DNA from: Ginglymostoma cirratum
Lineage: Eukaryota
Length of the DNA stretch: 64,000 bases
Direction of reading: 5' to 3'
Assembly: GCA_024137785.1 (NCBI GenBank)
Contig: JAHRHZ010000004.1
Coordinates: 24,349,432 to 24,413,431 of the forward strand
Both the position numbers and the translations under genes were made by a program. Below are positions 2,205 through 63,880 of the stretch, piece by piece. The notes beneath the pieces are model-generated. The model saw only the letters and a program-made list of their open reading frames with translations. It was not told the origin of the DNA and did not search any database. Positions within the stretch are counted from its first letter, which is position 1. Each line of letters begins with the position of its first letter.

Positions 2205-2594
2205 TTTTTCTTCTGCTGCTCAGACAGTCCCTTGGGATTGAGAATGACCCCATATGGGTCTGAAGGGATTAAACAGTCCGATGCTGGACCTCGCACACCC
2301 TGCCACAAGGGCGGGGTGGAGAGTTGTGGCTGAAGAGGTAGGTGTGTGGGATGCTCAGATTTTCACATGTTTCCAAACCACTGGCTGCAGTGTTTTGCAT
2401 TTCTGACATTCTGCAATTTCTTACACCAGTCTGACTGTGAAAATTGTGTCCACTGTGCCTATTGATGGACAGAATCTGCATAGTCACCCCGGGAAGTGCC
2501 CTTCTGTCACTAGGAAGAGGTGATTGAGGAGAATGTTTGAAATCACCTGCCCTGACTGACAGCAAGGAGACCCCTCTATAGGAACCGCAGTTTC
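2205..2594 (-). mobile_element. RTE-clade LINE, RT fragment plus 3' tail (part 3 of a split element)
   Basis: Minus translation CGSYRGVSLLSV..ISNILLNHL..FCPSIGTVDTIFTVR resembles RTE RT (CGNYRGISLLS..GTVDMIF); RTE-like tail ggtcattctcaatcccaagggactg near 2225-2250. Confidence 0.8.
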
Positions 2595-5352
2595 TTTTTT
2601 ATTCATTTGTGGGATGTGGGCGTCGCTGGCTGGCCAGTTTTATGTGTTGTTGGGGCTGCACCCATCCAGGCAAGTGGGGGTTATTCCATCACACTCCTGA
2701 CTTGTGCCTTGCAGATGGCAAATAGGCTTTGGGGAATCAGGATGTGGGTTACTCACTGCAGTATTCCCACTTCTGACCTGCTCTTGTCGCCACTGTGTTT
2801 ACGTGATGAGTCCAGTTGACTTTCTGCTCAGTGATAACCCACAGGGTTCAGTGATGGTAACACCATTGAATGTCAAGGGGTGGCGGTTAGATTGTCTCTT
2901 ACTGGTGATGGTCATAGCCTGGCATTTGTGTGGCACGATTGTCACTTGCCAGTTGTCAGCTCAAGCCTGGATATTGTCCGAATCTTGTTGCATTTGAACA
3001 TGCACTGCTTCAGTGTCTGAGGAGTCATTGAATGGTGCTCATCATGGTGGAGGAAGGTCATTGATGAAGCAGCTGAAGCTGATTGGGCCTAGGACACTAC
3101 CCTGAGGAACTCCTGCAGAGATATCTTGGAGCTGAGATGACTGACATCCAAAAACCACAAGCATCTTCCTCTGTGTCCAACCACTGGAGAGTTTGCCCTT
3201 GATACCCATTGATTCCAGATTTGCTAGGGTTCCTCATTGCCACACTTCAGCGAATGCAGCCTTGATATCAAGGGCTGTCACTCTCACCTCACCTCTAGAA
3301 TTCAGCTCTTTTGTCTGTGTTTGGACCAAGGCTGTAATGAGGTCAGGAGCTGAGTGGCCCTGGTGGAACCCAAACTGGGCATCACTGAGCAGGTTATTGC
3401 TGAGCAGGTGCTGCTTGATAGCACTGTTGATGGCATCATCCATCACTTTACTGATGATCAACAGTAGACTGATGGGGCGGTAATTGCCAGGTTATATTTG
3501 TCCTGCTTTTTATGTTCAGGACATGCCTGGGTAATTTTTCACATTGTTGTGCAGATGCCAGTGTTGTAACTGTACTGGAAGAGCTTGGCTAGGGGAGTAG
3601 CAAATTCTGAAGCACGAGTCTTTAAGGGCCCGTAGCCTTTACAGTATCCAGTGTCTCAGACTGTTTCTTGATGTCACGTGGAGTGAATCGAAATGGCTGA
3701 AGACTGGTACCTGTAATGCTGGGGACCACTGGAGGATGCCGAGATGCATCATCCACTCAGTATTTCTGGCTGAAGATTGCTCTGAATGCTTCAATCTTAT
3801 CTTTTGCACTGATGTGTTCAGCTCTTCCATCATTGAGGATGTAGATATTTGAGGAGCCTCCTCCTCCAGTGAGTTGTTTAATTGTCCACCACCATTCACG
3901 ACTGGATGTGGCAGGACTACAGAGCTTAGATCTGATCTGTTGGTTGTGGGATCCCTTAGCTCTGTCTATCATTTGCTCCATATGCTGTTTGGCATGCAAG
4001 TAGTCCTGTTTGGTAGCTTTACCAGGTTGACACGCCATCTTCAGGTCTGCCTAGTGCTGCTGCTGGCATCCCCTCCTGCATTGGCTTGATGATATGGTTG
4101 AATGGGGGATATGCCAGGCCATAAGATTACAGATTGGGCTGGAGTACAATTCTGCTCCTGTTGATGGCCTACAGCACCTCATGGATGCTCAGTATTGATT
4201 TGCTAGATCTGTTTGAAGTCTGTCCCATTTAGCACGGTGATAGTGCCACACAACACGCTGGAGGTTATTTTCAATATGAAGGTAGGACTTCGTCTCCACA
4301 AGGACTGTGCGATAGTCACTCTTACCGATACCGTCATGGACAGATGCAACTGCAGCTGGCAGATTGGTAAGGATGGGGTCAAGTTTTTCCCTCTTGTTGG
4401 TTCCCTCACCACCTGCTGCAGACACCAGTCTAGCAGCTATGTCCGTTAGGACCCAACCAGCTCGATCAGTAGTATAGCTGCCGAGCCACTCTTAGTGGTG
4501 GACATTGAAATTCCCACACTCATAGTATATTTTGTGCCCTTGCCAGCCTCAGTGCTTCCTCTAAGTGTTGAAGAAGCGCATGAAGAAGTACAGGTTCACC
4601 AGCTGAGGGAGGATAGTTTGAGGTAATTGTCAGGAGGTTTCCTTGCCCATGTTTAACCTGAAGCCGTGAGACTTCATGGAGCCAGGTCAGTATTGAGAAC
4701 TCCCAAAGCAACTCCCTCCTGACTATATACCACTGTGTCACCACCTCTACTGGGTCTGTCCTGCCAGTGAGATAGGACATATCCAGGGATGGTGATGGTG
4801 GTGTCTGGGACATTGTCTGTAAGGTACGATTCTGTGAGTATGACCATGTCAGGCTGTTACTTGACTAGTCTGTGAGACAGCTCTCCCAATTTTGACACTA
4901 GCCCCCAGATGTTGGTGAGGAGGACTTTTCAGGGTTGACAGGACTGTTTCTGTCATAGTCTTTTCCAGTGCCTAGGTCGATCTGTCAGGTGATCCATCTG
5001 ATTTTAGTTCTTTGAGACCTAGTAGCAAATGGTACAACTAAATGGCTTGCTATGTCAATTCTGAGGGCAATTGAGAGTCAACCACATTTCTGGGGTCTGG
5101 AGTCACATGTAGGCCAAATTAACCAAGGATGGCAGTTTCCTTTCCTGAAGGCATTCGTGAACCAGATGGGTTTTCTTTCCCAACAGTCACCAATAATTTC
5201 ATGGTCATCAATAGATTCTTAATTCCAGATTTTATTTTGTCTTGAATTGTCTTTAGTCATGGCAGGATTCGAACCCAGGTCTGTAGAACATTAGCTATGT
5301 TCCTGGACTAACAATCTTGTGATAATACCACTGGGACACCACCTTACCTTAA
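2595..5352 (-). mobile_element. Decayed CR1/L2-group LINE (endonuclease + RT) with tRNA-derived 5' head and no ORF1
   Basis: EN start LLTNIWGL..PDMVILTESYL (~4925-4820); TRGKNL and GKSDY motifs; RT QFGFHQGHSAPDL, ALDIKAAF, GVPQGSVLGP..FINDLP; catalytic xADD segment deleted; B box at 5265-5275; stops and frameshifts. Confidence 0.9.
5265..5338 (-). promoter_or_regulatory. Pol III type-2 internal promoter (A and B boxes) of the LINE head
   Basis: Minus strand tgtcccagtgg (A-box-like, 5338-5328) and ggttcgaatcc (consensus B box, 5275-5265). Confidence 0.7.
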
Positions 5353-6180
5353 AGTTTCATCTCTTTTCTTGAAGATGGTCACAATCATAGCACTTTGGAG
5401 ATCTCCTGGTATGCTTTCCTCCTTCCATATAAAGAAGATGATGTCATACGTTTCTACCAAGAGAGCGTCTGTACAATATTCCAGTCTTTTGGTGAGGATT
5501 CCATCAACACTGGCAGCCTTGATGGTTCTCAGCCAACAGGTGGCCTTTCCAACCTCATGTCTGTCTGAGGTTATGCTGCAATGGTGGTAAGGTAATATGA
5601 TGTGGGATATGGCCAAATGTAACCACATCAAGGGCTGAGTCTTGGTTGGGGAGATGCTCAAATTGCTCCTTCTAATGAGTTCTGAATGACTGCCTGTCTT
5701 TGATGAGTGCCTCTCCATTCTTCCCTCTCAGTGGGATATGCCCTAGGCTGATCGGACCATCGATAATACTAACTGCTGATGAATGGGCAACGTTCTTGTA
5801 GACAAGTTATTTAATTTCCTGCATTCTTTCCTCCCACCATCTGTTCTTTATGTCATTGGATTTTTTTTTCCCATTGGACCTCATTTGCCAGTAGAGCTGC
5901 TTGCTTTCCCTTGCGTTGTGATGGTGTTTTTGCAGCTGCTGACGTTTTTGGGTGGGCTGATGGTGGTAGTCGCCTGGATTAGGTGATGGCTGGTCTGACA
6001 GTCATCAGCTCCTGTCATTGCACAGGTGACGTGAACATCCTTGTGATCCCTCGCTTGGATGAAGGTAGTGTTGTCACAACAGACTCGAGTAGCAGGAGTT
6101 GAGAGTGTTGCCATGAGGCCCTGAATTTTTCTCTCTGACAAATAGAGTATTTGTTCTGCCCAGACCATAGTGGCAGTTTG
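5353..6180 (-). mobile_element. RTE-clade LINE ORF fragment (part 2)
   Basis: KAASVDGI..IWKEESIPGDLQSAMIVTIFKKRD and GADDCQTSHHLI (RTE GADCWTDHRLI-like). Confidence 0.85.
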
Positions 6181-6199: not shown

Positions 6200-7565
6200 T
6201 AACGTAGAAGATAGGAGCCAGAGTAGGCCATTCGACACCTTGAGCCTGCTCCGCCATTCAATATGGCTGATCATCGAGCTCAATACCCTAATCTCACCCA
6301 CCCCTATACCCGTTGATTCCTTTAGCCACAAGAACAAATCTACCTCCTTGCTGAAAGCACATAATGTTTTGGCCTCAACTACTTTCTGTGGAAGTGAATT
6401 CCACAGCTCACCACTCTCTGGGTGAATAAATTTCTCCTCATCTCAGTCCTAAAAGGTTCACTCCTTATCCTTAAACTAAAACCCCTGATTCTGGACTCCA
6501 CCACCATTGGGAACATCCTTCCTGCGTCTAACCTGTCTAGTCTTGTTACAATTTTATAAGTTTATATCAAATTCCTACCTCCACCCCCATTCATTTCAAC
6601 TCTAGTGAACACAATCCTGACTGAATCAATTTCTCCTCATACACCATCTCAGATAAACCTTCACTGCATTTCCTCTACAGCAAGAATAATCTTCCTCAGA
6701 TGGAGTGACCAAAACTATACACAATATTCTAGGTGTGGCCACACCAAGGCCCTGTATAATTGCAGTAAGTCATCCTTGTTCCTGCACTTGAATCCTCTTG
6801 CTAGAGGTTTGCATTCTCACCTCCCTGCTGTACCTGCGCACTTACTTTCAGCAATTGGTGCACGAGGACGCCCAGGTCTTGTTGAACATTCCCCTCTCTC
6901 AATTTGCAGCCATTCAAAGTGGATAACCTCACATTTATCCATATTATACTGCATCTGCCATAGGATTGCCTCCCACTCAGCCTGTCCAAATCACATTGCA
7001 ACGTTGCTGCATCCTCCTTACAGCTGACCCTTCCACCCAGCCTGATGTCATCTGCAAATTTTGAGATATAACATTTTGTTCCCTTGTCTAAATCATTAAC
7101 ATATATTGGGAAAAGCTAGAATGCTGGCACAGATTCCTGCAGTATCCCCACTAGTCACTGCCTGCCATTCAGGAAAAGACCCATGTATTTCTACCCTTTG
7201 CTTCCTGTCTGCTAACTAATTTTCTCTCCATCTCAATATGCTACACCAATCACATTAGTTTTACACATTAATCTCTTTTGTGGGATTTTGCCAAAAGCCT
7301 TCTGAAAGTCCAAACAAATTGCATCCATTGATTCACCTGATCAACTCTGCTGCTTACATCTGCAAAGAATTCCAACAGATTTGTCAAACATGATTTTCCT
7401 TTTGTAAATCCATATGACTATGCCTAATTCTATGAATATTTTTAAGTGCTGTGCTACAAAGTTCTTGATAATGGACTTTAGCATCTTCCCCACTACCGAC
7501 GTCAGACTCACTGGCCTATAGCTCCCGGTTTTCTCTCTACCTCCACTTTTTAAATAGTGAGGTTA
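6200..7565 (-). mobile_element. CR1/HER1-type LINE fragment nested in the RTE element
   Basis: LQCDLDRL, QQDLGVLVH motifs; FADD-like (tcatctgcaaa); typical CR1 3' tail at 6200-6280. Confidence 0.9.
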
Positions 7566-7619
7566 CACTCCATTGGTGTTTGCCTTGCTTATAGCTTCCT
7601 TACCAGTCATGTATTCCTC

Positions 7620-8220
7620 ACAACTCTGGCATTGAAATCACTAAGGAGAATGAACTTGTTTCCCTTTGGGTTACAGGACAACGATAGGAGTATAACCCTC
7701 TTGGGTCACGTCCACAGTTGCTCCTAGGCCCAGGGAGGATGCACTGACAGTTGCGGTGTACTGATTCTGCATTATCATGAGTCAAAGAGTCATGAGACAC
7801 TTATTTATACAAATAGGGGTAGCGCGGCTCACTGAGATGGTCAACTAGCCTGTTTTTTTATGGTGAAACCAATCCCATGGAGATAGCATTCTTCCTCAGG
7901 TTTACCTTTCCGAACGAATGTGTATCCAACTCCTTGTTCTTTTAGCTGACCTTCTCCTGCTGCCAGGTCTCACTCAGGACAATATTGTCAACACCATAAT
8001 GCTGGCGTTCCCGAGCTATGGTAACGGTGTAACTCACAGATCTGTCACTGCTGGGGATGTTCATGTGTTTGCTGAAATTCCACTTCCCAAACTTCATTTT
8101 TGAGGGGATGAAGGTTCTTTGTGTTTGGGTTCTTTAACATGGGGGAGCTGGTGCCCACCAACTACCACATGGTGCTGGCAGAGCCAAGTTTGTGTCCCAT
8201 GGCAGGGAAGGTTGAAAAGA
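7620..8220 (-). mobile_element. RTE-clade LINE 5' part, endonuclease N-terminus (part 1)
   Basis: Minus translation MKFGKWNF..IARERQHYGVDNIVLSETW..QLKEQGVGYTFVRKGKPEEECYLHGIGFTIK, typical of the RTE APE domain. Confidence 0.85.
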
Positions 8221-8248: not shown

Positions 8249-8920
8249 ACACACACAAACNNNNNNNNNNNNNNNNNNNNNNNNNNNNNNNNNNNNNNNN
8301 NNNNNNNNNNNNNNNNNNNNNNNNNNNNNNNNNNNNNNNNNNNNNNNNNNNNNNNNNNNNNNNNNNNNNNNNNNNNNNNNNNNNNNNNNNNNNNNNNNNN
8401 NNNNNNNNNNNNNNNNNNNNNNNNNNNNNNNNNNNNNNNNNNNNNNNNNNNNNNNNNNNNNNNNNNNNNNNNNNNNNNNNNNNNNNNNNNNNNNNNNNNN
8501 NNNNNNNNNNNNNNNNNNNNNNNNNNNNNNNNNNNNNNNNNNNNNNNNNNNNNNNNNNNNNNNNNNNNNNNNNNNNNNNNNNNNNNNNNNNNNNNNNNNN
8601 NNNNNNNNNNNNNNNNNNNNNNNNNNNNNNNNNNNNNNNNNNNNNNNCACACACTCACATAGACACAAACATACACACACATACACACACACACACACAG
8701 ACAGACACAAACATACACACACACACAGACANNNNNNNNNNNNNNNNNNNNNNNNNNNNNNNNNNNNNNNNNNNNNNNNNNNNNNNNNNNNNNNNNNNNN
8801 NNNNNNNNNNNNNNNNNNNNNNNNNNNNNNNNNNNNNNNNNNNNNNNNNNNNNNNNNNNNNNNNNNNNNNNNNNNNNNNNNNNNNNNNNNNNNNNNNNNN
8901 NNNNNNNNNNNNNNNNNNNN
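8249..8920. repeat. CA-rich microsatellite with two assembly gaps (N 8261-8647 and 8732-8920)
   Basis: Imperfect (CA)n either side of and between N runs. Confidence 0.95.
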
Positions 8921-9249
8921 NACCACCCCAAGTACACCCCATCCCACCCTGAGAGCCTGCTGTATATTATAGATATACAATCTGGATTTATTGACATAAA
9001 CATCCATGAGACATGCTGTTTTTATAATAAGACAGGCACGTAATATTTTGGCAAGGTGAAAGAGATTAATTAGCGAGCACACCACCAACAGCTTGCTCCT
9101 GGTAAGCCTCAGGCTTCATTGATAAAATGTATGTGTACCTTTTTGAAAATTCCCATCACGGAGCAAGGAATTTGAATACATTCCTTGATATTATGCGCAC
9201 AAAGATATAGCTTCCCAATGGGTCAGTAACTATGCTGTTGGAGTGTTCT

Positions 9250-20724: not shown

Positions 20725-22375
<1,651 letters not shown>

Positions 22376-22729: not shown

Positions 22730-23360
22730 TCATTTTTGTGCCTTCATGATATGGAATATGGGTAGATCACTAGCTAGGCTAGCATTTATTGCCCATTACA
22801 ATTTGGCGAGCTCCCTTCTTGAACAGCTACAGTCCACATGGCATAGGTACACCCATAGTGCTGTTAAGATGGGAATTCCAGAATTTTAAGCCAGTGACAA
22901 TGAAGGAACAACTACATAGTTCCAAGTTAGTATCATATGTGTCTCAGAGGGGAACTTGTATGTTGCTATACTCCCATGCTTCCGCTGCCCTTCATCTGCC
23001 ACATGATGGAGGTCTTCAGTTTGGAAGGTGCTGTGTGACAAGCCTCAGTGAGTTGCTGCTTTGCATTTTGCATATGGTACACCCTGCTGCCACTGTGGTG
23101 GAAGGAGTGAACATTTAATTTAAATGGACCAAGTGTCAGTCAGGCTGGGTTCTTTGCTTTAAGTGGTGCTGAGTTCTGGAACCACACTTGAGTCAAGTGG
23201 AGGATAGTCCATCACACTGCTGACTTGTGTCCTGTAGCTGGTAGACGGGTGGTGGAGAGTGAGGAGGTGAGTTACTGTCCTAAAAACACTTCGTATCTGT
23301 TCTTGTAGCTGTGGTATTTATATGGCTGACCCAGTTCAGTTTTTGGTCATTAGTGATCTT
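22730..23360 (-). mobile_element. 3' fragment of the same LINE family as 2595-5352
   Basis: agcatttattgcccat tail; tccatcacactgctgacttgtg matches 2685-2706. Confidence 0.8.
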
Positions 23361-23699: not shown

Positions 23700-24125
23700 G
23701 TTGCACTTTCCATTTATCCTCTATTATGTTATGGAATACATCACCAATGCTCAGCAAAAGCAGTGTGTACTATTTACAAGATGCACTGCAGAATTCACCA
23801 AAGATCCTCAGACACCACCTTCCAAATCCATGACCTCTTCCGTCTAAAAGGACAAAGGCAGCTGATACATGGTAAGGCCACCACCTGCAAATTCCCCTCC
23901 AAGCCACTCACCATCCTGATTTAGAAATAGACCACCATTCCTTCACTGTTGCTGAGTCAAATTCCTGGAATTCCCTCCCTAATGGCATCATAGGTCAATC
24001 CACAGGAGGTAGACTGCAGCGGTTGAAGAAGGCAGCTCACCATCACCTTTCCGAGGGCAACTAGGGATGGGTTAAAAACTGTTAGCCAGGCCAGCAATAC
24101 TCACATCCCACAAATTAATCAAAGA
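23700..24125 (+). mobile_element. 3' fragment of the same LINE family as 2595-5352
   Basis: Ends gagggcaactagggatggg..gccaggccagcaatactcacatcccacaaa, antisense to 2600-2637. Confidence 0.8.
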
Positions 24126-35769: not shown

Positions 35770-35814
35770 AAATGAATCCATTGTATTTTCTTTGAGACAC
35801 CCACCTGTTTCTTC

Positions 35815-37010
35815 TACAGGGATCCTGTAGATGTAATATATCTGGACTTCTGGAAGGCGTTTGATAAGGTGCCACACAAAAGGTTAATCTACAAGATTGG
35901 ATGATACGGGATTAGGGGTAATTTATTATCTTGGGTAGGTGACTGGCTGATGGACAGAAGACAGAGAGTTGGGATAAATGGGTTTTTATCCTGGGTGGCA
36001 AGAAGTAACAAATGGGGTGCCCCTGAGTTTGGTCCTTGAACCCCAGCTATTTACAATCTACATTAATGACTTGGATACAATGATAGGAGCTCTATAGCCA
36101 AATTTGCAGATGACAAAAATAGGTGGGACGGTAAATTGCAATGAGGAAATAAGAACCTTACAAATGAATATAAATCAGGTTAGGAGAGTGGGCCAAACTG
36201 TGGCAGATGGAGTTTAATGTGGCTAAGAGTGAGGTCATGTATTTTGTTCAGAAAAGTGGGAAGACTACCTGTTATCTAAATGGGGAGAGGCTTCGGGGTG
36301 CTCCGGTGCAGAGGGATCTGGGTGTCCTCGTTTGAGTCACAGAAAACTAGCATGCAGGTGCAGCAGATAATGAAGAAAATGAATAGAATGTGGGCTTTTA
36401 TAGCTAAAGGAATCGAATATAAAGGTATGGAAGTATTGTTGCAACTATACAAGGCATTGGCGAGACTGTACCTGGAGTATTGGGCACAGTTTTGGTCCCC
36501 TTATTTGAGGAAAGATACGGTGGCAGTTCAGAGGAGGTTCACTAGATCAATCCCAGAGAAAAGGGTTCGTCATATGAAGAGAGATTGAACAGTTTAGGCC
36601 TATACTTTCTGGAATTTAGAAGAATAAGGGGAGATTGAATTGAGATATTCAAGATGATAAAAAAAATACGGATAAAATAGATGTGGAGGGGATGCTTCCT
36701 CTTGTGCGGAATTCTAGGACAAGAAGTCATAGTCTTAGGATAAGGGATAGCAAATTTAAAACAGTTGAGGAGAAACTACTTCTCCCAAAGGGTTGTGAAT
36801 CTGTGGAATTCACTATCGCAAATTGTGGTGGATGGTGGGACAGTGAGTAAATTTAAGGAGGAGTTAGACAGATTTTTGATTGGTAATGAGTTGAAGGGTT
36901 ATGGGGAGAAGGCTGGAAAATGGGAGTGAGGAGCATATCAGCCATGATTGAATGGCAGAGCAGATTTCAATGGGCCGAATGGCCTAATTCTGCTCCTTTA
37001 GCTTATGAAC
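35815..37010 (+). mobile_element. CR1-type LINE, RT domain to 3' end
   Basis: DVIYLDFWKAFDKVPHKRL, FTIYINDLD, KFADD, LLQLYKALARLYLEYWAQFWSPYLRKD. Confidence 0.93.
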
Positions 37011-38629: not shown

Positions 38630-39010
38630 CTTTTTAATTAATTCATGGGATGTGGACATTACTAGTTCAGCCACTATTTATTGCCATTGCCCACAGGGCG
38701 TTTAAGAGTCAACAACATTTCTGTGGGTCACAACAGTTAGGCCAACTAAGTAAGGATGACATATTTCTTTGCCTGAAGGACATTAGTGAACTAAATGGGT
38801 TTTTATGATGATTGGTAGCGGTGACATACTCATAGAGTCACTCTGCATGAAAATAGGCCCTTCGGCCCAACTCCTCCATGCCTCTGGTTGCCATAGTCAC
38901 CTTTATATTCCAGATTTTATTGATTCTAAATTTCGCCATCTGACGTGGTGGAATTTGAACCCATGATCCCAGAACATATGTCTACAGCTCTAGATTATTG
39001 GTCCAGTGAT
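38630..39010 (-). mobile_element. tRNA-headed SINE (family of 60950-61300), interrupted by a CR1 tail piece
   Basis: attcatgggatgtggacatt..ttaagagtcaacaacatt..cattagtgaac..gaatttgaaccc. Confidence 0.8.
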
Positions 39011-39716
39011 GAGTCATCAGCTTGTCTAGTAGAAATGTGAAGAATGATGTCTATTCTGAAGTTTTCCTCATTTCCCTTCACGCAGTCTCCAATTGTTCAT
39101 TTTTGTTTAGCTGAGGTTGATAACTGATGTACGCTAATGGTGCTTGAGTGATTAAATCGGTGAATGGACTTGGTGGGGGGAGCGCTGTATTCAGGGAAGA
39201 AAACATGGAAACCATGAGCTGCCAACATAATTACGGACATTTTGTGACCATGCAGAGATATTTTAAAGTTGTGTAAATCACGCCTGTTGCACACATTGTG
39301 TCATCTGTGCCAGTCTGAGATATTAATTATACGATAATCTGGTAATATTTGTACAGTGCTTTGCCTTGGGAATTAAGTAGGTGACAGAGTATAACAGCAC
39401 AGCTTGTGTATGGTCTGTTGGACCTTTGTTGTTCTGTACTGTCCACTGTTTTTTGTCTATATCATTAAACATCATAAGTGTATCACTTACTGTAAGCAGG
39501 TCATGTCTTTAAAAGTATTGAAACAAACAGGTATCATGTGCTCAAATAGAACACAATGATATTGGCAGTGTGCCCAGGCAGAATAAGGATACGTTGCAGG
39601 GCAGTAGAGAGCTAGCTGCAGAAAGTGTTGGAGCTAGGCTGCCTTAGAGCTGGTACCAAACAATTTTAGGGATTGTTGTTTAGGAATGCTTGATGTTGGA
39701 CATTGTTGAAGTTACC

Positions 39717-44469: not shown

Positions 44470-44770
44470 AGGAGGTAGGTTGTACCACAATGGTCATAAC
44501 ACTGGATAAATAATCTGAATGACAGGGGTTCACCTCGACTGCAGATTGTGGAATAGAGTTTAATTAATAAATCTGGAATTTGCAACTTGTGGCTGATTGT
44601 TATAAGAGATCTGGTTCAGTTGTGATATCCTTACTTGGCCTGGCCTATATATGACTACAAAACAATGTAGATGATTTCTAATTGCCCTCTGAAATGATTA
44701 TTCAGTTCAAGGGAAATCGACCACAAATGTTGGCCTTGTCAGTGATATGCACATTCCATGAAAGAAAAAG
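44470..44770 (+). mobile_element. Decayed tRNA-headed SINE (family of 60950-61300)
   Basis: aataaatctggaatt..atctggttca..tggcctatatatgact..tgccctctgaaatg..cagttcaaggg. Confidence 0.7.
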
Positions 44771-46819: not shown

Positions 46820-47660
46820 AGATAAATTAATGTGATTAAAGAGACAGTGCTTGAAAAGTTAGCAGAATTGAGTATTGATAACTTCCTGGACCAAATGAGC
46901 TTCACCCCAGAGTGCTGAAACAAGGAGTAATAGAGACGATGGATGTATTGGTTGTTTTATCATATTATATATCATGAAAAGGCTTCTCCTAAGTTGAAAG
47001 TTGCAGATACAACCCCATTGTTTAAAAAGGGAGCAAGGTGTAGAATAGAAAACAACAGGCCTGTTAGCTTGATGCCAATTATAGGGAAAATGTTAAAATC
47101 TAGTATAAAGGATGTGATAGTGGAACATGCAGGAAAGAATGGCAAAATTGTGCAGAGTCACCCTGGATAAATGAAAGGGAAATCATGTTTGACAAACTTG
47201 TCAGAGGTTTCTGAGGATGCCACTGTGGCATAGACAAAGGTGAAACATCAGATGCAGTCAATTTGAATTTCCATGTGGCTTTTCATAAGATCCCACTCAA
47301 AGTCTAGTAAATAAAATTAGAGCATATGGGGCTAGTGGGAATATGAGTATGAATTGAAAATGGTCCATGAGTCACTTAAAAACTAACATGTAGGTGTAGC
47401 AAGCAATTAGTAAGGTACATTGGCATTAGTTCCAAGGGGATTTGAGTACAGAAGAAAAAGATGTCTTGCTGACAGCTTTGACAAAACCACACCTGGCGTA
47501 TTGACAGTTTGAGTGCCTTTATCTAAGGAAATATACATTTACCCTAGAGGGAGTTCAACAGAAATTCACTGAATTAAGCTCTGGGATGGTGCAGTTTTCT
47601 CATGAGTAGAGATTGAGGAAACAGTTTGTATTTCCTCGAGTTTTGAAGAATGAGAGCTGA
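46820..47660 (+). mobile_element. CR1-type LINE RT fragment
   Basis: TPLFKKGAR..NNRPVSLMPIIGKML; KGKSCLTNL. Confidence 0.85.
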
Positions 47661-52254: not shown

Positions 52255-53445
52255 TTCTTGACCTCTCCTTTTCCATTTCTGGTGACAGTTTATGGACCAA
52301 CATTTACTATAAACCCACAGACTCCCAAAGCCACCTAAACTACTCTTCCTCCCACACTCTATCCTGAAAAAACTCCATTCCATTTTCCCAATTCCTCCAT
52401 CTCCGTCACACCTGCTCTGATGAGGAGACATTCCACTCCCAAGCATCCTGGCTGTCTGCCTTTTTCAAGCAACACTTCTTTCTCCTCTCTGTTATCCAGA
52501 CAGCCGTCCACCATGCCTCCTCCATTCTCTGCTCCAAAGCTTTTTAACAACCACCACCCCTTCCAAACATAATAAAGATAGGGACCCCTTGTCCTCACTT
52601 TCCACTCCACCAGCCTCTGCATCCAACATATCATTCTCAAACACTTCCGTCAACTCCAATTAGACCCCACCACCTGGAATATCTTCCACTCCCACCCCTC
52701 TCTGCTTTCCACAAGGACCATTTCCTTCACTGCTCCTTAGTTTGCATTACGTTCCACCAACCACTCCACCTCACCTCTTTCCAGCCCTTCCAAGTGAGAC
52801 AGAGCTTCACCTGCACCTCCTCCAACCTAGTCTATTGCATTCGGTGCTCCCGATATGGTCTTCTCTACGTTGGTGAGACCAAACATAGACTAGGTGACCG
52901 TTTCGCCAAGCATCTCCGTCTGGCCCAACGTAACCTCCTGGTTGCCGCCCATTTCAATCCCTGCCCCACTCCCCCTCTACATGTCCGTCCTCAGCCTCCT
53001 CCAATGTTGCAGTGACTCGGAACGCAAGTTTGAAGAACAACACCTTACCTTCCACCTGGGCACCCTACAGCCCGGAGAACTCAACATCGAGTTCTCTAAT
53101 TTCAAATAACCTTCACGCCCATTCCCCTGCTTTCCCTTGCAGCCCACCTACTCCCTTCCACTCCACCTACTGACCCTCCCTTCCAGCTACCAACCGCATT
53201 CATCCTTCCCATTGACCAACCACGTTGTACCTACCACCAGTGTCCACCTATCACTATCGTTCTGCCTCCGCCCCTCCCCCCTCCTTTATCTGCAGCTCCC
53301 CCTACCCCCACGTCCAGTCCTAAAGAAAGGTATTACTCAATACTTTGTCTTCTCCTTTCCTCCAGATGTTGCCTGACCTGCCGTGTTCTTCCAGCCTCCT
53401 GTTTGTCTACCTTGGATTCCAGCATCTGCAGGTTTTTTGCCTTTA
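52255..53445 (+). mobile_element. Penelope-like element 3' part (RT end plus GIY-YIG)
   Basis: YYKPTDS; FTCTSSNLVYCIRCSRYGLLYVGETKHRLGDRFAKHLR; EQHLTFHLGTLQPGELNIEF. Confidence 0.92.
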
Positions 53446-55329
53446 ACATACACGGGGTGGACTGACTAAACAACTGCACTGATTCCATGATACAGAAGAG
53501 TTAGAGGGTAAAGCTGATGTCTTTATACCAGAATGTCATATATTGCGATGTCATGTAACTCTATTAAAGCTACAGGCTTGTCTGTTCTGGAATTTATGCC
53601 CTAATACAAGCTTGGTGGACTGAATGTCCTTTCCTGATATCATCCTTCGTATAACAGCCTTTCACTAGTAAAATGAGTATTTTACAATCAACATATTTAC
53701 AATCCATTACCAAGCGTAAATATGCATGAATTTCCAAGAACGTAAAAGTCAATCATTGCATTTAAAATAATGGGGTATAGTAAAGCATTTTCATCAAATC
53801 ACAGCTGCTTTAACATCCAGCACATATTTCAAAGGGATGGAACAAATTAGGAATATGATGTATTTTCAGCAGAACGCACAAATCCTGCCCTACGGTCTTG
53901 ACTAACTCTGTGCACATGGAAACACAATTAGAGAAAATAATTTCACAAACTTGAGACAAATAGCCAATGAAATGTAGATAGATGACTGAGACGAAAAACA
54001 AGCTGCATAAATAACACAACACAGACAAGAGAGCAGGGATTTCTTCAGAACAAAAGTTCTAAAACGTTATCGACCATCCTGGACAATAATGGGAGCCGGT
54101 GCCTTACTTGACAAAATAGCCCAAATTATAATCAAACAAAATGTTTATTAATGCTGATAGTTTTAATTAATTTGTTAGGGCCTCCAAGCACCAGACAATA
54201 AGAACATTTGAAAACTTGGTCCGACGACACTCAAAATCTGATCCCTAATATTTTAATATTGATGTTGTATATGCCTGAAATAGAAAATCCTTGTCAGTTT
54301 TTTAGAAATGATTTGCAGTGATGCAACCACTCTGCAACTTTGATATCACACCATTATTTCTCTGTCTGTATGTACTTCTCTCTTACTCCACAGCACTCTT
54401 TGGTGTATTTCATTTTCTGAGTATGCAACAGCTGGTCGTGTGTAGACTGGGTTTGGGAAAATCTATTGGCATATGAAGTTTATGTGACATTCTCAGTCAC
54501 TCAGTTTAGGGTTTGCTCAAGATGGTGTTCAGTTTTCCTGCACATCAGGCACTCAAAAAAATGAGCCGAGACTTCTAACTCATAGTAAGTATCTCTAACA
54601 CAGAGGACTGTCATATGCAGGTGGCCATTGAGTAAGACTGGTTCTGCTCTTTCACAGCAAACAGTTGGTCCTCAAGGATTGGATGAATAACCCTTTGACA
54701 TTAGGCTGGCTGTCAGTTGAAGTTCTACTGAAAAGTGAAAGTATAGATGTTTGAAGCACGGAAGGAAGGTGCTTGGCTTACTTTGTCCTTTAAAGAGCAA
54801 TTCCAAATCAGCCCTGATGCCTTATTCAATATATTTAGTCCTATAACTTCTCACACTCAAAATATTTATCTAAATGTAATATGAAAATGACATTCACATC
54901 TTCCTTCCTCATTGTCAAAACACAGACAGATTACACTATCTTCCATCTTCCACACTTTCCAGAAATCTAAAGACTGTGGAACCCTTTACCCTAGTCAGAC
55001 TTCCATTTCTGTCAAATGTTTGAACACTATAAGTCCGAGCATAGTCATTCTCTGTCTGCCGTGCCGACCAATTTCAATAGGCCTTTCAATTGTGGAGACC
55101 TGATGTGTCCTTAGTTGCAAAAGGGTGATGGTACTGTTGATCATAGTTGCCAACAGAGATCACAGGATGGGAACACTGCCTGATTCCTACACTCCCTTTT
55201 CCCTGGCTCTCATTGCTGAAGCCAAATTTGACACCCTATTGTTGTCCCAGGTTGCGGCCAATAATTCACCACAAATAAAACACCGAACCTATGAGCTGAC
55301 AAATTGTGTGGTCAATCAGGAGAGCTAAG

Positions 55330-58424: not shown

Positions 58425-59250
58425 TAGTCATAAAGTCAGACAGCACAGAAAAGGCCCTTTGGCCTATCAAGTCTGCACTGAAAATAACTACCTCTAAAGA
58501 TACGCTAATCCCAGTTTCCTGCATTTGTCCCATATCCTTGAATGCTATGATATTTAAAGTACTCATCCAAGTAGTCTCTTAAAGGTTGTAAGATTTCCAA
58601 CTTCCACTACCTTCCCAGGCAGTGCATTCCAGTTTCCCACCCCCTGCTGATTGAAACTATGTCCCCTTGTAATTGACCCCTCAACCAAAGGGAACAGCTG
58701 TTCCCTAAGTCCCAAACGCATATCCCTCATAATCATATACATCTCAATCATGTCACCCCTCCGCCTTCTCTGCTCTAATAAAAACAATCTAAGCCTAACT
58801 GGTGTCTCCTTGTAGCTCTATTTTTCTATCCCAGGCAACATCCTGGTCAACCTCCTCTGTCCCCTCTCCATTGCTATCGCATCCTTCCTATAATGAGGTG
58901 ATCAGAACTGCACACAGTATCCAGCTGTGACCAACTAACACTCTGTACAACTCCAACATTATCTCCTTGCTCTTATACTCCTTGCCATGACCGATGAAAG
59001 CAAATGTCCCATATGCCTTCTTAACTATCCTATTCACGTGCTCTTCCGATTTCAGGGCTCTGTGAATAATTATCCCAAGATCCCTTTGTTGCTCTATGCT
59101 ACCTAGTGTTCTGCCATTCACTGAGTACTCCCTCATCTTATTTCTTCTTCCAAAGTGCATCACCTTGCACTTATCTGCGTTAAATACTATCTGCCACCGT
59201 TTTGCCCAGCTGACTAACCCATCTATGTCTTCCTGTAACCTGCTAAAGTT
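58425..59250 (-). mobile_element. CR1-type LINE 3' part
   Basis: LQEDIDGLVSWAKRWQIVFNADKCKVMHFGRRN..QRDLGIII. Confidence 0.93.
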
Positions 59251-59991
59251 GTCACAATGAACTTGATGCATAACAAAAAGACTAAAATCTTAGGCTACCC
59301 CAATCTTTATGGGTCAGTGAGATTCCAATGAAGAAATTTTCTTTGTTTTCCCACATCTACTGGATCTGATTATTTATGTTGTGTGATTTCGTCAATTATT
59401 GCACCTTGGGGACAGTGGGTTCGTATTTCTGCATGCACGCTGAGCTAAGGATGCTGGGTGGGCCAACCTGAAAACATTGTCACCTCATTTAAATCATCAA
59501 TATAGATTGTAAATTGCTAGGTCCAATGACTGAGCTTTGTGAGAACCCACTAGTTACAACCTTCCAACCCAAAAAAGTCACATTTAATCCTCCGCTCTAT
59601 TTTCTGTTTTTTGGAGAGAAAATGTTTTCCATTCCGCTAATACCAAACACTCCCACACCAGGTGCGGTATTGACAGTCATAACCTTCTTTCTGGTCTAAC
59701 AATGCTGCTTTGTCCCAACCCCTGAATGACTCCTACTGCTGCTGCTTTATTCCCTATATTCACCTTAATGATTTCGTTGATTCACATTCAAAACTTGTTG
59801 CCTGATTGCAATTATCCATATACGGTGTGTTGGTCCCCATTTTGAACAGCATTGAAACTCTTGTAGTTGGCAAAATACATTCTCAGCATTAACTGCCCCA
59901 CTTAGCATCCTTAGTTCACTGTGCATACAAAAATAAATCTTAACCCGCTGTCCCCAGGAGCTCAGTGCCTTTAAATCATTACACCATTTAC

Positions 59992-60949: not shown

Positions 60950-61300
60950 CTTTTATTCATTCATAGGATGAGAGCATTGCTGGCTGGGCCAGCATTTATT
61001 GCCCATCCCTAATTGCCCAGAGGGCAGTTAAGTGTCAACCACATTGCTGTGGGCCTGGAGTCACATATAGGCCAGACCGGATAAGGATGGAGCTTCCTTC
61101 CATTAGTGAACCAAATGAGCTTTTTCCCTGACAATTGGCAATCGATTCATGGTCATCATTAATTCCAGATTAATCTTAATTCTGAATTTTTGTCGAATTC
61201 AAATTTCACCATGGCAGGATTTGAACCTGCATTCCCAGAACATTACACAGGACTCTGGATTAACAGTCCAGCAATAATACCATTAGGTCATCACCTCCCC
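60950..61300 (-). mobile_element. Full-length tRNA-headed SINE sharing head and tail with the LINE at 2595-5352
   Basis: 61020-61300 aligns to 5062-5343; 60950-61000 aligns to 2595-2643; core resembles the Meta/MESC SINE domain as recalled. Confidence 0.88.
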
Positions 61301-61779
61301 TCTATTGCCAAGGTTAATCTCCAGGCTGTGCTGGGTTGTCTGATCTCCCCCTGGGTAGCAATATGGTCCCAATGTTTGAGTCATGGATGGGGAAGAAAAA
61401 TCAGCCATGTTTTTTTTGTGAGGTTCTTGGCTGTTCATGGAACCTGAGAACTGCTGGACTTAATATTGTATGAGCACACAGTATAGCTCCTATGAGAAAC
61501 AATCACCCTGGCTCTTCTGCCTTGATCACTCCACTGGTTCTGTGTGACAGCTTTTAGTGAACAGTGTAGTTAAACATTGCATTCCAATACACTATGACAC
61601 AATGCTTTCCTTCTGTTTACACACCCCTCCTCCTTAGTAATAGCATGTTTCCATAATGCATCACCGTAGCGTAAACAATAAATTTAAGCACAACTCAGTC
61701 AATCAACTCATTATATCTTTAACTCTTGTACAAATCTACTAATGTTCTCAGTTATTTGCAATGCGATGAAAGATTTGTT

Positions 61780-63560: not shown

Positions 63561-63687
63561 CTGTTTGCTACATTTTTGAGAGAGCACAAAATATATTTGG
63601 GATCATCTGCTTCTACTCTGGTTACATTCGCATACCCTTTTACTGTGATGTGTATCCATGGCACCCTTCTGTATTGTAAATACCAAA

Positions 63688-63880
63688 CTTGTTCACTCAT
63701 GTCATTTAGTGACAGAAATCTACCAACCTTGCCTGGTCTGGCCTATATGGGACTCTAGACCCACAGCACTGTGGTTGAACCTCATCTACTCTCTGAAATG
63801 ACCTCTCAAGCCATTCAGTTCAAGGCCAGTTAGGGATGCTGACCTTGCCAATGACATCACATCTCATGAAAAAATAAAAC
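63688..63880 (+). mobile_element. SINE core and tail (family of 60950-61300)
   Basis: gttcactcatgtc..cctggtctggcctatatgggactctagacccacagc..caagccattcagttcaagg. Confidence 0.8.

Follow-up and report, generated by a model that had tools for sequence, protein, structure and literature searches.

A compact LINE family of sharks and rays with a tRNA-derived, SINE-like head and suggestive signs of selection against Pol III terminators

The stretch of DNA analysed here, referred to as the window, covers 64,000 nucleotides of Ginglymostoma cirratum (assembly GCA_024137785.1, contig JAHRHZ010000004.1, positions 24,349,432 to 24,413,431 of the forward strand) and is repeat-rich animal DNA. On its minus strand, from 5352 to 2595 (all coordinates of the element are window positions), lies a dead copy of a compact family of long interspersed nuclear elements (LINEs) of sharks and rays. 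Its 5′ part is common to a SINE (short interspersed nuclear element) family, and the remainder carries an endonuclease (EN), a reverse transcriptase (RT) and a short 3′ tail. An earlier note on this DNA had proposed that the block is an autonomous LINE-SINE hybrid that uses a SINE as its promoter. Autonomy has to be given up for this copy, which contains stops, frameshifts and a C-terminal deletion, and is conceivable only for an ancestral master copy.

The element, whose parts all lie on the minus strand, begins with eight extra bases (5345–5352) that the alignment places between flank and SINE homology, followed by a transfer RNA (tRNA)-derived head (5258–5344) with an insert of about 20 nt in the variable-arm region. 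The B box, GGTTCGAATCC at 5275–5265, is an exact match, and the A-box-like sequence, TGTCCCAGTGG at 5338–5328, was located via the alignment to a free SINE at 61300; it has one mismatch to the consensus and was missed by the pattern search alone. ARAGORN found no tRNA gene in the window and Rfam gave no tRNA match in the head of the element itself, which is too decayed for tRNA models, while the sister SINE (61206–61320) matches the Rfam tRNA model with 27 bits (E 4e-4), 2 bits under the gathering score of 29. The 5′ end thus has the head of a tRNA-derived SINE (SINE2), recognised by its A and B boxes and, via the sister copy only, by the tRNA model. It is followed by a body of about 220 nt (5036–5257), defined by alignment to the free copies, which stops at base 5036. 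The SINE at 61300 aligns with head and body together at 69% identity across 288 nt (E 3e-22). The tRNA-like head and SINE core described in the earlier note have both held up. A LINE-only linker (4929–5035) then leads to the EN; this order is as first described, and the length is about 107 nt instead of about 130.

The last 60 nt or so of the linker encode a basic leader in the frame of the EN. The apurinic-type EN domain (4287–4928), interrupted by stops and frameshifts, was recognised by alignment to relatives, and the broken RT domain (2853–3491) by Pfam RVT_1 (E 8e-24 for the translated stretch 3491–2802, read through stops). The Exo_endo_phos match of a close relative, P0156, was weak (E 1.4e-3, under the cut-off), and both domains are present in the full-length relatives P0042, P0142, P0078 and P0066, which have 941–983 residues and are collinear with the element. 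The order of an N-terminal apurinic-type EN and a non-LTR (non-long terminal repeat) RT in one frame is that of LINEs with an apurinic-type endonuclease, and the relative P0042 matches the structures of L1 ORF2p and R2. Behind the RT, the start of the following region (2645–2852) is cut by an internal deletion at about 2645; alignment with the relatives stops there, at residue 827 of 962 (P0142), 804 of 941 (P0078), 712 of 846 (P0044) and 462 of 590 (P0023). Some 130–140 C-terminal codons are gone, and the frame then jumps to the last 45 nt or so of the 3′ tail (2595–2640), which is common to LINE and SINE, contains a small hairpin and is A-rich at its end. EN, RT and tail therefore follow the linker as had been claimed, in an open reading frame (ORF) that many stops and frameshifts have left broken. 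The lost ORF end is supplied by a 5′-truncated LINE of the same tail family on the plus strand (23700–24123), aligned over the ORF C-terminus, the stop codon and a 3′ untranslated region (UTR) of about 60 nt, and the intact family length would be about 3.2 kb. At 2.76 kb and with an EN-RT frame, the element is no SINE proper, a term for non-coding elements shorter than about 700 nt. The window holds no second full-length copy of it. Near the truncated copy, a related LINE fragment on the minus strand (23000–23360) is 76% identical over 86 nt to 2668–2753, the region just past the RT, which would make it an older copy or a member of a second subfamily.

The layout leaves no room for an ORF1. 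The two-ORF organisation of CR1/L2 LINEs is absent, as only 107 nt separate the SINE body from the EN, and none of the three frames of 5352–5033 has a Pfam match. Because the relatives are collinear with the element and residues 1–106 of P0042 align from 4988 onward, with the first residue at 4988 itself, an upstream ORF cannot be accommodated. The weight that had been given to the lack of ORF1 as something unusual was overstated. The zebrafish L2 element ZfL2-2, like the present element a single EN-RT ORF and without ORF1p, retrotransposes in HeLa cells (PMC3880073), and single-ORF subgroups exist within CR1/L2 (PMC4120745). Unlike the present element, ZfL2-2 belongs to another lineage, and the available text on it does not mention a tRNA head (PMC3880073).

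Three free copies of the SINE family are found in the 64-kb window. One on the minus strand (60951–61300) is full-length, with the head, the body up to the equivalent of about 5063 and then the LINE tail; a second on the minus strand (38655–39020, the SINE at 39020) has an insertion; and the third, on the plus strand (63679–63880, the SINE at 63820), is a 5′-truncated long variant. All three were delimited by alignment, and all are short and non-coding, that is, SINEs proper. The SINE at 63820 tracks the element to base 5036 and then changes to the last 75 nt or so of the LINE, and those at 61300 and 39020 depart from the element about 27 nt earlier. The free copies are therefore bipartite LINE-derived SINEs, in which the 5′ part equals the 5′ end of the LINE and the 3′ part its 3′ end: the free SINE is the LINE without its ORF, consisting of its first 280–310 nt and its last 75 nt or so. 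This structure is compatible with descent in either direction. Either the SINE arose from the LINE by deletion of the ORF, or the LINE arose by a template switch onto a SINE at the 5036 boundary and founded the family, and the direction implied at first, in which a LINE took up a SINE, may be the reverse of what happened. Had the join arisen by chance, its coincidence with the boundary between body and tail of the SINE itself would be unexpected. Folding of the shared ends was informative in one case, the tail of the SINE at 61 kb (60950–61025, minus strand), where a long stem encloses an inner hairpin (z −2.3; 5 of 200 shuffles did as well); the other five of six tail and head folds were no better than shuffles, and the truncated tail of the main element keeps only the inner hairpin of that fold. 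A possible fourth, very decayed SINE copy lies on the plus strand at 44641–44697, where a weak match to the body was seen (71% over 62 nt, E 0.011).

Evidence that the arrangement recurs elsewhere came from 38 distinct predicted proteins, mostly gene models over decayed copies, 13 of which reach the start of the EN with at least 8 upstream residues. Among these 13, the SINE body was matched by two (P0152 and P0155; 0 of 300 shuffles), the linker by seven and neither by four. Eight peptides picked by eye from the 13 were also aligned against 5100–4930, with 500 shuffles. P0157 (5058–4984) and P0184 (5087–4998) both run across base 5036 with none of the 500 shuffles as good, P0154 (5038–4931) reaches just 3 nt past the junction, P0155 aligns over 5087–5034, and P0185 matches the linker only; in this comparison P0152 was not significant (16 of 500 shuffles) and nothing was found for P0161 and P0187. 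SINE-body sequence thus stands ahead of the EN in four of the 13 outside peptides, two of which cross base 5036. The five carriers (P0157, P0184, P0155, P0152 and P0154) are 49–73% identical to each other, which indicates separate loci. A Pfam ORF1 domain was found in none of the 13 peptides, and no shared alternative 5′ end recurs among them; P0187 has about 76 unrelated residues upstream. The earlier expectations that the junction is not unique to this locus, that head and body form one heritable unit and that the family does not extend into an ORF1 all find agreement in these peptides, and the SINE-headed, ORF1-less architecture is very probably a real feature of the family. A first search with long proteins left one match out of 43 candidates, and this was a host gene into which a piece of the EN had been exonised. 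In P0001, P0173, P0174, P0178, P0180 and P0182, one gene model combines a family EN piece with sequence of host genes (among them kinase, PDZ and mitochondrial carrier), possibly by exonisation or as an annotation artefact. Bacterial and archaeal genomes, scanned for stray copies, gave 23 pattern matches, none of them confirmed.

The element sits within another LINE, which we take from its motifs to be of the RTE type. The upstream half of this host (5353–6170, minus strand) is a decayed ORF, traced by its reading frame and without a Pfam hit, that P0139 links weakly to the RT family (E 5e-4); the downstream half (2230–2594, minus strand) resumes at the next codon, so that the host RT frame continues on both sides of the inserted block. 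The hexamer AGTTTC is indeed present at both ends, at 2589–2594 beside the 3′ end of the element and at 5353–5358 beside its 5′ end, as had been pointed out; as a target-site duplication (TSD) it is a weak argument for head and body having arrived together. Read as a blunt insertion, the host frame has nine residues between its ..FK and YR motifs, the commonest spacing in the RTs retrieved for comparison, with 46 of 60 motif matches (ten residues in the other 14), and read with a TSD the frame is 4 nt short. On this account the repeat is probably in part due to chance, its copy beside the 3′ end of the element probably being tail bases and flank rather than a TSD, and the tails of the free SINEs and of the LINE likewise end in an A-run followed by GA. 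Insertion of the element as one block into another LINE is the simplest reading, of which the repeat is no proof. The window holds no second copy of the host LINE from which the empty site could be rebuilt. A decayed endonuclease-like peptide at 7620–8200 (minus strand), of RTE type by eye and without a Pfam hit, could represent the 5′ portion of the host, from which a CR1 fragment would separate it.

With regard to classification, the RT of the element and six close fragments form a branch of their own with support 98/93 in a tree of 31 rows without named references. The RT sits among EN-RT proteins that are about 45–57% identical over an 85-residue query, and the close protein relatives include a red stingray record (P0182). 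The element does not group with vertebrate CR1, its RT being far from two CR1-type RTs of the window, one of which has a very long branch and both of which were labelled CR1 from motifs. The CR1-Zenon-like or CR1-group label applied here to the element is likewise our assumption from RT motifs. In the ESM Atlas, the clusters resembling P0042 comprise very few records, from Chordata, Ctenophora, Nematoda and Echinodermata.

The sequence of the ORF bears on the polymerase by which the element was read. RNA polymerase III (Pol III) terminates at T runs, and an ORF read by it is therefore expected to lack them. In 2,745 nt the sense strand contains a single run of four or more T (T4+), where base composition predicts 5.5 (P 0.02). 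Of all T4-free stretches on the two strands of the window, the longest is 6450–3155, with 3,296 nt including flank, of which 2,190 belong to the element; the runner-up has 1,297 nt. The sole run identified by the count (3150–3154, minus strand) encodes F. Since three of three close family peptides have V or I at this place, the run is probably a mutation that followed the insertion. Runs of three or more T number 10 against 24.0 expected, and TTTNT/TNTTT occurs once against 9.35, while a CR1 control has 24 against 18.6 and 9 against 8.2 and an RTE control has no deficit either. The TT ratio of the element, 0.72, is the lowest of 233 sliding windows (median 1.05). The CR1-type fragments that served as controls are decayed RT pieces at 6200–7600 and 58940–59290 (minus strand) and at 35800–36320 and 46985–47225 (plus strand), which we presume from motifs to be vertebrate CR1. 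Synonymous codons were then permuted with protein, codon usage and CpG context held fixed: the element has 71 TT against 83.1 (P≤0.0005) and 6 runs of three or more T against 12.4 (P 0.0015), its AA is not depleted (P 0.14), and TT is at the expected level in the controls (CR1 147 against 147.0 in 624 codons; RTE 27 against 25.7 in 156 codons). A different, ‘resample’ null was dropped, as depletion of AA appeared with it in all three sets. Avoidance at synonymous sites implies that the frame kept coding while T runs were selected against. This pattern is suggestive of selection against Pol III terminators and lends suggestive, indirect support to the SINE head as the promoter of the LINE.

The explanation that we prefer, and to which we give about an even chance, is a family of single-ORF CR1-group LINEs with a fixed tRNA-derived Pol III promoter and a 220-nt body, read by Pol III. 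The polymerase would start at the A and B boxes and read the whole element, the T-run terminators having been purged from its sense strand. The uncapped RNA might then be translated into one EN-RT protein, a step that would need cap-independent initiation and in which the start would probably not be a standard in-frame AUG. The one in-frame ATG of this copy, at 4997, was rejected as the start because of an apparent 2-nt insertion just downstream relative to other copies, and because outside gene models vary both in their first ATG and in the point at which they join the EN frame. By the standard CR1/L2 mechanism, the EN-RT protein would bind the hairpin tail that LINE and SINE have in common, nick the target and reverse-transcribe. 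A full-length copy would take its promoter along, as the single block seen here and the same join elsewhere indicate; the free SINE would be the same molecule minus the ORF, and the present copy would have been inserted as a block into the other LINE and then decayed. The fuller version of this account, namely an autonomous LINE with a Pol III transcript of about 3 kb, cap-free translation, recoding that avoids terminators and the parentage of a whole SINE by a single internal deletion, is put forward tentatively, with somewhat less than an even chance.

Several observations weigh against this explanation. The T4 depletion loses its significance with a dinucleotide null (P 0.32) or a codon-usage null (1 against 1.8, P 0.42), a CpG-free test of TT within codons gives P 0.11, and the test at codon junctions gives P 0.03 once CpG decay is handled, the raw value of 1e-4 having been inflated by that decay. 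A 421-nt 3′ fragment of the same family, though free of T4, is not TT-poor (TT ratio 1.08, junction counts 7:4). Runs of four G are low as well (2 against 7.0, P 0.02 with the dinucleotide null), and the 818-nt flank from the presumed RTE host is also T4-free. A low TT content might also be an ancestral trait of the clade. On the side of the outside peptides, some of the gene models are probably spliced, with a nearby SINE as a possible source for P0152 and P0155, the majority belong to one source set, and none of the 13 peptides clearly reaches the tRNA head. Finally, Pol III is regarded as weakly processive and its RNA as uncapped (PMC10886601).

Among the alternatives, the one that survives best accepts the family and its SINE-like head and holds that the full-length LINE is made by RNA polymerase II (Pol II), with Pol III serving only the short SINE derivative. 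Head and body would then be an ordinary 5′ UTR or a Pol II promoter, or transcription would come from host read-through. This agrees with the published view, expressed in a 2024 paper, that transcription is by Pol II in non-LTR elements and by Pol III in SINEs, and that Pol III cannot serve an autonomous element (PMC10886601), and with the limit of about 0.1–1.3 kb that Pol III sets on element length (PMC10886601; PMC5786205); there is also the precedent of Ingi-3_AC, in which SINE-derived sequence lies within the 5′ UTR of a LINE (PMC5786205). Pol II would supply a cap and so remove the problem of translation, and several of the T-run sub-tests are weak. SINE-capped BovB, discussed below, would be a further, partial precedent. 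What this alternative leaves unexplained is the synonymous avoidance of TT and TTT, absent from the CR1 and RTE controls, and the B box, which is perfect and stands at the very 5′ end, and we regard it as unlikely, if still a serious competitor.

A second alternative takes the SINE-headed form to be a successful yet dependent chimera, created by one template switch from a LINE onto the SINE and copied in trans by a conventional partner LINE that has a Pol II 5′ UTR of its own and may or may not have an ORF1. Template switching is the standard origin of new SINE heads and tails (PMC5786205; PMC7245038), the present copy kept its tail and lost its ORF end as a trans-mobilised RNA could, and the sample of 13 peptides at the EN start is small and includes P0187 with its unrelated upstream residues. 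Against it, the 13 peptides offer neither an ORF1 domain nor a recurring alternative 5′ end, and selection at synonymous sites implies that the ORF was coding under the T-run constraint; we consider such a chimera improbable. That a SINE was inserted at, or joined to, the 5′ end of this single LINE copy is very improbable and appears already largely refuted, even though the SINE is common (three free copies in 64 kb), the window has no second full-length copy and the TSD is doubtful, because the independent peptides P0157 and P0184 cross the same junction, which falls on the SINE's own body/tail boundary and is without a SINE tail.

Comparison with described systems places the element near several of them. 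SINEs made from the two ends of a LINE are known for RTE and Vingi (PMC5786205; PMC7245038), SINE bodies being reported from these two only and bipartite elements from RTE, Ingi, Vingi and R2 (PMC5786205); the CR1-group-like element lies outside these RTE and Vingi body donors. Bov-tA, AfroSINE and SINE2-1_ACar likewise consist of a head, a LINE 5′ part and a LINE 3′ part, but in them the tRNA head was added after the deletion and is absent from the LINE, whereas here the LINE carries it (PMC5786205, Kojima 2018). CR1-Zenon-type elements resemble the present one in having a CR1-group EN-RT and a 3′ tail that is short and serves to mobilise tRNA SINEs, and in occurring in sharks. The class is reported in the whale shark (10.1101/443036), and in bivalves, where CR1-Zenon LINEs are SINE partners, these LINEs are unlike the element in exceeding 4 kb and in having an ORF1 in eight of nine cases (PMC11481361). 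The chondrichthyan SINEs described so far in these sources, HE1 (V), SacSINE1 (Deu) and SINE2-1_CM (CORE) (PMC3747384, PMC5499810; further sources on shark SINEs are PMC10468316, PMC4824008, PMC5381603, PMC3531059 and PMC11481361), are also tRNA-derived elements of sharks and chimaeras whose tails recur in CR1/L2 LINEs. Compared by description only, none of the three is described in the available text with a head common to its LINE. Four short motifs of the SINE were absent from two supplements of the hagfish paper. Its body is not known to be of the V, Deu or CORE type.

A partial precedent in architecture is BovB, of the RTE clade, which Walsh et al. in 2013 are said to have described with SINE sequence at its 5′ end, SINE-capped and ORF1-less. 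It resembles the element in the fixed position of its SINE, with the difference that no Pol III-transcribed ORF is known to have been claimed for it. Retrotransposons other than SINEs that have Pol III promoters are represented by TRIMp3 (Cassandra, Helenus and Ajax); these are non-coding LTR elements of 0.3–1.3 kb, and their autonomous partners are argued to need Pol II (PMC10886601). A description of a tRNA-headed CR1-group LINE was not found in the literature, of which subscription papers were thinly covered, and a catalogue entry is possible; three short motifs of the element matched no paper.

Should the preferred explanation be correct, the accepted division of LINEs to Pol II and SINEs to Pol III would meet an exception, namely a LINE family whose tRNA head is fixed and whose codons are depleted of terminators. 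Such a family would make testable the production by Pol III of a functional 3-kb mRNA from a genomic gene, the translation of an uncapped ORF2 RNA and the origin of SINE bodies, the SINE body here being the 5′ region of its partner LINE in a clade outside the RTE and Vingi cases (PMC5786205). If Pol II is used, there would remain a well-defined pair of LINE and SINE that seems not to have been described, of moderate interest to specialists.

Elsewhere in the window, assembly gaps at 8261–8647 (387 N) and 8732–8921 (190 N) surround a CA-type microsatellite, and a strongly G-skewed minisatellite occupies 21188–21944, with an 18-bp unit in 42.3 copies and 91% matches. The C-rich stretch 52373–53669 on the plus strand, which is the second-longest T4-free stretch when read on the minus strand, has a weak GIY-YIG match (E 0.002, under the cut-off) and is consistent with a Penelope-like element.

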